Virus record (IMG/VR): IMGVR_UViG_2534681674_000012
Reading direction: 5' to 3' (one strand)
DNA: 8,296 bases
Source: a virus
Taxonomy: Duplodnaviria > Heunggongvirae > Uroviricota > Caudoviricetes
Of this stretch, positions 5,349 to 5,375 are shown one piece after another; the first letter of the stretch is position 1, and every line of letters starts with the position of its first letter. Below the pieces are notes generated by a model, which searched no databases, was not told the origin of the DNA, and saw only the letters and a program-made list of their open reading frames with translations. The position numbers and the translations under genes were made by a program.

Positions 5349-5375
5349 AAAAAAAAGGCCGCGCCATGCGCAGCC
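5349..5375 (-). terminator. Intrinsic terminator on the minus strand between the cargo gene and the holin (possible tR' equivalent)
   Basis: Minus-strand hairpin GGCTGCGC-atg-GCGCGGCC (plus 5357-5375; 8-bp stem with one G·U) followed directly by U8 (plus 5349-5356 A8). Strongest terminator-like structure in the window. Confidence 0.55.

Follow-up and report, generated by a model that had tools for sequence, protein, structure and literature searches.

The GC-rich hairpin and U8 tract at positions 5375–5349 on the minus strand are very probably the Rho-independent terminator of pasD1, a self-contained small RNA (sRNA) gene of lambdoid prophages. PasD1 has already been described in prophages of pathogenic E. 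coli, and the terminator is thus already known. The window, by which we mean the whole stretch of 8,296 nt that was analysed, is a decayed lambdoid prophage. The mechanism offered in an earlier note, in which this hairpin is the equivalent of the lambda late terminator tR' displaced to a site behind a cargo gene, is partly right in effect and wrong in origin. The features on which the argument rests are as follows.

7531–8178 (minus): IS3-type transposase fragment, upstream of Q
6802–7425 (minus): lambda-type antiterminator Q, 207 aa (PF03589, E-value 4e-58)
5806–6564 or 6549 (minus): cargo membrane protein, 247–252 aa by start choice, no Pfam family; alternative start ATG 6522
5562–5720 (minus): DUF3927 small membrane protein, 52 aa, second cargo gene (PF13064, E-value 3e-14); 'TciB' in the phage 434 record
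5349–5521 (minus): PasD1 sRNA gene, 173 nt, 173/173 identity to NC_011601.1 1060260–1060432
5380–5385 (minus): predicted PasD seed UGUGAG, 4 nt 5' of the terminator stem
5349–5375 (minus): intrinsic terminator, stem GGCUGCGC/GCGCGGCC (5375–5368 / 5364–5357), loop AUG (5367–5365), U8 (5356–5349)
4725–4940 (minus): class II (P21-type) holin (PF04971)
4228–4725 (minus): endolysin/lysozyme (PF00959)

The terminator and the RNA that it ends

The site reads ...UGUGAGUUCU-GGCUGCGC-AUG-GCGCGGCC-UUUUUUUU-AUG... on the minus strand, and its stem (5375–5357) consists of eight pairs, seven G-C and one G-U, closed by the 3-nt loop. In Hfq-dependent sRNAs, such a terminator stem and its U-tail form the Hfq-binding 3' module. 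For a 35-nt segment containing the hairpin, the folding energy was –15.2 kcal/mol; the hairpin made up 97% of the ensemble, and the z-score relative to dinucleotide shuffles was –3.5. The hairpin headed the 15 terminator-like sites that a consensus scan returned for the whole window. It was also the sole match, on either strand of the window, to a stringent scan for an 8-pair stem with at least 6 G-C pairs and at least 7 T in 8; among 300 shuffles of the window that preserved its dinucleotides, none gave a match. The claim of the earlier note that a strong intrinsic terminator, the best in the window, lies between the membrane-protein gene (5806–6549/6564) and the holin gene is therefore borne out by scan, fold and shuffles. 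The same interval also holds the DUF3927 gene, PasD1 and a convergent Esr41-like sRNA (5080–5169, plus), which that note did not list.

The RNA that ends at this hairpin was annotated in EPEC E2348/69 as a 173-nt sRNA at NC_011601.1 1060260–1060432 on the plus strand (Pearl Mizrahi et al. 2021, PMC8550237, table S6), with ends that rest on RNA-seq coverage and Northern blot. The Northern probe used there, CATGCGCAGCCAGAACTCACAAGG (PMC8550237, table S6), is the exact reverse complement of window positions 5392–5369. Positions 5375–5349 correspond without mismatch to the final 27 nt of PasD1, whose annotated 3' end is the last U of the U8 tract, and Hfq RIL-seq chimeras of PasD1 end at 1060432–1060434, i.e. 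at the U-tract (PMC8550237, tables S3 and S6). For the identical sequence in E2348/69, an Hfq-associated RNA of ~170 nt was demonstrated by Northern blot and RIL-seq, and PasD1 and PasD2, both Northern-validated and Hfq-associated, are among the most abundant sRNAs of EPEC (PMC8550237). In the predicted fold, PasD1 runs from a 5' domain closed by the helix GCAUGGUG...CGCCAUGC through a single-stranded U/C-rich linker and the seed to the terminator. The seed UGUGAG and its target motif CUCACA are themselves predictions (PMC8550237, fig. S5 and table S7).

Stretch 5521–5349 thus has the full-length match to PasD1/PasD2, the 3' stem with U8 and the seed UGUGAG before the terminator that mark a PasD RNA. 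According to Zhu et al. (2026), all Pas sRNAs carry a 3' stem-loop and poly-U, and PasD1 adjoins the holin/lysozyme operon near Q. Q (PF03589), holin and lysozyme are all present in the window; LpxR, which belongs within 10 kb of PasD, is absent from it, the window covering just 2.8 kb upstream, with IS3 there. The PasD homologue in EHEC is EcOnc13, a name for which a full-text literature search returned no matches.

Positions 4127–7444 are 98.4% identical to prophage PP4 of E2348/69. The two loci share the sRNA, terminator and seed without any difference, as well as the neighbours: lambda-type Q, a 744-bp membrane-protein gene, the DUF3927 gene, class II holin and lysozyme. They differ in that the prophage in the window is more decayed: IS3 precedes Q, and the Rz, terminase and tail genes are truncated. 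The stretch 2862–4243 (minus) carries the truncated Rz, a C-terminal terminase fragment, lambda gpW and tail gene fragments, together with an ORF in which a tail tape-measure-like C-terminus follows a short unrelated N-terminal segment. 2013C-4974, the only complete genome spanning the whole window, has an extra IS3 copy within this region. In the closest complete genome, the same remnant lies beside a tRNA-Arg gene, with further IS3 copies; a tRNA search of the window itself found none. At the prophage end, a 453-aa ORF (787–2148, plus; a RefSeq hypothetical protein) has a faint LRR match (PF23952, E-value 0.002), and its position suggests a possible effector-like cargo gene. Among remnants of tail-fibre-assembly genes, 304–475 (minus) matches Rfam IS009 at 86 bits, short of the gathering score of 117, and 215–277 (minus) gives a partial match to a CssrB-like terminator.

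That the region codes for protein and the hairpin is incidental to it is very improbable. ORFs do occur on both strands and have entered public annotation, as a 62-aa 'putative membrane protein' in phage 434 and as a 132-aa antisense ORF in RefSeq (window 5083–5481, plus), but neither matches a Pfam family above threshold. The 62-aa sense ORF requires a TTG start and reads through the terminator, and what was counted as reads and Hfq chimeras of the antisense 'CDS' stems from a short 3' segment that is the terminator of the Esr41-like sRNA. Across the PasD/STnc100 RNA family it is the structure that is conserved, and not a reading frame.

The STnc100 family and the putative pasD1 promoter

An Rfam scan matched positions 5551–5346 (minus) to STnc100 (RF02076), a multicopy prophage sRNA known from Salmonella and E. 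coli, with model positions 1–206 aligned, at 37.5 bits (E-value 1.8e-5), a score below the gathering score of 47, whereas relatives reach 90–148 bits. The alignment places the window terminator helix on the terminator helix of the model. The window sequence has the STnc100 architecture of a 5' GCAUGGUGAAUCC, a long-range closing helix, the CGGGAGGC arm and a terminal hairpin with U-tract, and it also resembles STnc100 in length and in its late-region place after cargo. It differs in the internal arms, the linker and the seed. Some bona fide STnc100 copies (99.6–117 bits) bear the identical GGCUGCGCAUGGCGCGGCC+U8 terminator: the exact PasD1 hairpin and U8 also end relatives of 195 and 209 nt, in which the STnc100 score of the 5' domain is 99.6 and 116.9 bits. 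PasD1 is thus a member of a multicopy PasD/STnc100 prophage family and a structural relative of STnc100 that falls below the Rfam threshold. HnrS, another multicopy prophage sRNA, was considered as a PasD relative and dropped, as no link was found.

We collected 119 family copies from viral contigs by the 5' motif GCATGGTGAATCCNCC, and read the conservation of the stem from a per-copy hairpin table and by direct pattern matching. In 118 of the 119 copies, a GC-rich hairpin with a T-rich tail lies 150–210 nt from the conserved 5' end. At least eight distinct stems occupy this place, among them GCCCCUC/GAGGGGC, GGCUCCU/AGGAGCC, GGCCUCU/AGGGGCC, GCCCCCUC/GAGGGGGC, GACCUGUUU/GAGCAGGUC and the PasD type. 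Within the PasD type, the variants GCGCGGCC, GCGCAGCC and GCGUGGCC each retain 8/8 pairs, via U-G, U-A or G-U changes, and loop lengths differ among ten family terminators. The near-constant presence of a hairpin built from so many stems indicates that the family conserves a terminator at this position as a module that can be exchanged. In published Stx phages, STnc100 is located 75 nt after stx2B and stx1AB is 'bookended' by sRNAs, so that an sRNA with its terminator after late-region cargo is a common layout.

Genes of the family are often tandem, ~470 nt apart (L064 1541–1795; L020, L021, L077, L088 and L091, with two copies each). In L064, a convergent AgvB sRNA (96.5 bits) directly adjoins one copy. 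The U-tract is interrupted in many copies (UUUCUUAU, UGUUUAUA), and behind it comes a hairpin fit to serve as a terminator of the opposite strand. This suggests that pairs of sRNA terminators set face to face recur as a layout in the late regions of lambdoid phages.

Upstream of the sRNA, one further feature bears on how the RNA arises.

5529–5558 (minus): promoter-like site of pasD1, –35 TTGACT 5558–5553; –10 TTAAAA 5535–5530 or TAAAAA 5534–5529

The –35 element begins 4 nt past the DUF3927 stop codon, the spacing to the –10 box is 17–18 nt, and the –10 box lies 7–9 nt before G5521, the putative start site. The –10 box is without the usual final T, and the site was not reported by a consensus promoter scan. 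The TTAAAA/TAAAAA box nevertheless recurs at a constant distance from GCATGG in most or almost all of the 119 family copies, with a –35-like hexamer 17–18 nt above it, while the upstream flanks are of several unrelated types. At Salmonella STnc100 promoters, an RpoD ChIP-exo signal was found (PMC10794520). Transcription of pasD1 therefore most likely starts at its own sigma-70 promoter-like site, with G5521 as the predicted 5' end. A role of the pasD1 promoter as a pR'/qut site was rejected; the module follows lambda-type and 82-type Q genes, each with its own upstream pR', as well as stx2 in Stx phages.

PasD1 could instead be a 3'-UTR product cut by RNase E from the membrane-protein/DUF3927 mRNA, which would make the hairpin the terminator of the cargo operon. 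The short distance of 41 nt from the DUF3927 stop codon to the PasD1 5' end on the same strand, the non-canonical –10 box and the origin by processing of the related prophage sRNAs PasA and StxS all fit this reading, which we nonetheless consider improbable. It does not account for the TTGACT and A/T-rich box that are kept, at the right spacing, 5' of GCATGG in copies that follow unrelated genes, nor for the sigma-70 signal in Salmonella. In addition, read counts, which reflect RNA stability as well as synthesis, are ~60-fold higher in total and ~250-fold higher per nucleotide for PasD1 than for the cargo, which argues against a mere processing product.

The putative late promoter and the lost tR'

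The proposal that the hairpin is a displaced tR' turns on what follows the late promoter. Three features between Q and the cargo gene matter here.

6718–6759 (minus): putative lambda-like late promoter/qut region, 90.6% identity to lambda 44500–44584, ending at 6727
6661–6683 (minus): degenerate relic of a phage-82/434-type tR', CCUGCC-GCCG-AGUAG + U5, from alignment to phage 434
6540–6569 (minus): possible cargo sigma-70 promoter, TTGTTA-18-TGtTATCAT (TG extension), a consensus scan match only

The putative pR' has a –35 TTGACT (6759–6754), a 17-nt spacer with TTGAATAA and TTGGG, and a –10 GAAACT (6736–6731). A –10-like pause element, AATAAT (6723–6718), is followed by GGG (to 6715), the lambda counterpart being AACGAT-GGG. 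By its elements, the region 6759–6718 looks like a working lambda pR'/qut. The lambda homology, which runs from the end of Q, stops at 6727; the lambda 6S region and tR' are absent. Neither scan nor folding found a terminator-like structure between pR' (~6759–6718) and the cargo start, a point on which the earlier note is supported. The run 'GGGCGUUUUUU' at 6717–6707 was considered as a mini-terminator and rejected, as no stem precedes it.

A trace of the missing element can nonetheless be seen. In phage 434, the annotated tR' terminator (ACCCGCU-GCCG-AGUGGGU + U8, OL657226.1 42034–42059; –13.3 kcal/mol, z-score –4.3) lies ~50 nt after its pR'. The homologous window position, directly before the shared cargo module, is 6683–6661. 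Compared to 434, the relic has three stem substitutions, lacks 4 nt in the stretch from the 3' stem end through the T-run, and retains U5 in place of U8; on folding, this window segment forms no terminator hairpin. The tR' was decayed in all lambda-Q-type copies examined (the window, E2348/69 PP4, L018, L028, L074, L087 and L102), and its hairpin was intact in all Q82-type copies examined. Cargo, PasD and the sequence beyond them recur in phage 434 (OL657226.1) at 98% identity, there behind a Q82-like gene, so that this phage has both the PasD terminator and an intact tR'. This indicates that in the present haplotype tR' was lost, and that the terminator was not moved.

The reading in the earlier note, that the hairpin is the functional tR' relocated past the cargo, so that pR' serves the cargo constitutively and only Q-modified polymerase reaches S and R, must be weighed against this. 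We regard it as rather unlikely. Part of it stands: nothing terminator-like lies from pR' (~6723) to the cargo, the lambda tR' is gone, the PasD1 terminator is the first strong one after pR' (1,375 nt from the putative pR' start), and in EPEC the cargo is on with Q and the lysis genes off. The hairpin is also, like tR', an intrinsic terminator on the late strand. The relocation itself does not hold up against the rest. Terminator, sRNA and cargo occur together in phage 434 beside an intact promoter-proximal tR', and the decayed copy of that tR' is still discernible in the window. The RNA ending at the hairpin starts at 5521 rather than at pR' and is ~250 times as abundant per nucleotide as the cargo mRNA. 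A candidate promoter (6569–6540) could serve the cargo separately, and terminators of this family are found after many different cargos, stx2 included. "Displaced" is therefore the wrong description; the sequence fits a PasD1 terminator that became the first barrier by default after the loss of tR'.

The comparison with known late terminators points the same way. The tR' of lambda, which ends the 6S RNA, and that of Stx phages, which ends the pR'-tR' transcript StxS (Sy et al. 2020, PMC7547250), resemble the PasD1 terminator in lying within the late operon, 5' of the lysis genes, and in being intrinsic terminators that give rise to an abundant sRNA. StxS also binds Hfq (PMC7547250), and read-through by Q-modified polymerase would be expected at these terminators and the PasD1 terminator alike. 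In contrast, a tR' lies ~50–260 nt after pR', before the late ORFs, and ends the pR' transcript, whereas the PasD1 terminator lies behind two ORFs and a second promoter-like site and ends an RNA from 5521. The lambda tR' has no sequence similarity to it, there is no lambda match beyond 6727, and the 434-type homologue of tR' is the relic at 6683–6661.

Cargo expression and probable insulation of the lysis genes

Published expression data from EPEC lysogens, in which PP4 is the 98.4% identical prophage, fit this layout. Given as DESeq2 BaseMean in activating / non-activating conditions (PMC8550237, table S2), a measure that is not length-normalised and reflects RNA stability as well as synthesis, the values were 6.0 / 1.3 for Q (E2348C_1011), 147 / 90 for the cargo membrane protein (E2348C_1012), 8652 / 502 for pasD1, 2064 / 220 for the antisense 'E2348C_1013', 5.4 / 1.2 for the holin (E2348C_1014) and 3.9 / 0.6 for the lysozyme (E2348C_1015). 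Per nucleotide, in the activating condition, this corresponds to ~50 for PasD1, ~0.2 for the cargo, ~0.025 for the holin and ~0.01 for Q. The cargo homologue is thus expressed in EPEC lysogens, and some promoter between Q and the cargo, either pR' or the match at 6569–6540, is active there. The annotated 5' end of the cargo ORF contains the latter, which would suit ATG 6522, the start used by the EcoCyc-derived annotation of E2348C_1012. At the holin there is almost no RNA-seq signal. The separation of cargo expression from S and R that the earlier note proposed is accordingly seen in PP4, with the cargo on, holin and lysozyme silent and Q off.

The PasD1 terminator probably also keeps upstream transcription out of the lysis genes, and other elements between PasD1 and the holin, namely a convergent Esr41-like unit and a weak hairpin at 5006–4978, could add to the block. 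Two features lie downstream of the terminator.

5325–5346 (minus): second hairpin of the earlier note, GACCUGCC-ACU-GGCAG-AU-GGUC
5080–5169 (plus): convergent Esr41-like sRNA (Rfam RF02676, 32.3 bits, E-value 1.8e-4, well below the gathering score of 102)

The second hairpin, which according to the earlier note might reinforce the terminator, is unlikely to do so. It folded at –10.8 kcal/mol (z-score –1.9), with 9 of 200 shuffles folding equally well, no U-tract follows it, and its natural variants (GACCAGCC, GGCC and GTTC/GUUC) each break a pair with no compensation. It sits in the leader of a former nanS-p (SASA) esterase gene. Of that gene, 5209–5262 (minus) retains the GGGAGA ribosome-binding site and 17 codons (MSINRYDIGYKKYHVLC*); phage 434 and most relatives have a full 1.85-kb esterase gene after PasD, and the homology of the window to 434 ends near 5238.

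The Esr41-like sRNA has its own terminator (CCAGCGCAGA...UCUGCGCUGG + U6), placing its 3' end 180 nt from that of PasD1, and a promoter-like CTGACT-18-GATAAT precedes it at 5028–5057 (plus). The EPEC RIL-seq fragment filed as 'E2348C_1013' maps exactly to window positions 5127–5168 (plus; 42 nt, identical). The entry has a high read count (BaseMean 2064), falls sharply when hfq is deleted (log2 fold change –2.9; PMC8550237), and looks like an sRNA that was annotated in RefSeq as a hypothetical protein.

Taken together, the layout suggests the following course of events. RNA polymerase would start at the sigma-70 promoter-like site behind the DUF3927 stop codon, at G5521, pass through the structured 5' domain and then the U/C-rich linker with the seed, and halt at U8 to yield the 173-nt PasD1 RNA. 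Because of its position and strength, the same terminator would stop polymerase that had started further upstream, at the lambda-like pR' or at a cargo promoter; part of these transcripts may instead end further downstream. In the lysogen, the two cargo membrane-protein genes would then be on, with holin and endolysin kept off, and upon induction Q-modified polymerase would be expected to read through the PasD1 terminator. IS3 lies immediately upstream of Q, and Rz and terminase are truncated; in this prophage remnant, Q-dependent read-through may therefore have been lost.

The arrangement recalls the morons of lambdoid phages, reportedly treated by Juhala and Hendrix in 2000. A moron is an extra gene with its own promoter and terminator. 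The likeness lies in a cargo inserted between Q and S, on in the lysogen and followed by a strong terminator; the difference is that the terminator belongs here to a separate sRNA gene and that the cargo promoter is a consensus match only. We would tentatively entertain, while holding it doubtful, that in the lambda-Q haplotype with its decayed tR' the PasD/STnc100 terminator has become the de facto Q-controlled gate of the late operon, with pR' constitutive for the moron cargo and a single hairpin acting both as the Hfq-binding 3' end of the sRNA and as the insulator of the lysis genes. Should this hold throughout, the STnc100/PasD genes, which frequently have a convergent sRNA as partner (Esr41-like here, AgvB in L064), would be more than an sRNA family: they would also act as modular insulators in the late regions of lambdoid phages.

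The main value of the finding is a correction of annotation: what had been read as a regulatory terminator of the phage is where an abundant, published Hfq-associated sRNA ends, one that interacts with virulence-gene mRNAs in EPEC. It adds, modestly, that the classical tR' is lost in this haplotype and that, on the way from a constitutive late-region promoter to the lysis genes, the first strong barrier is the terminator of the sRNA. With the EPEC expression data in agreement, the locus offers a simple case of how cargo can be expressed in a lysogen without leak into the lysis genes, and sRNA genes may double as transcriptional insulators.
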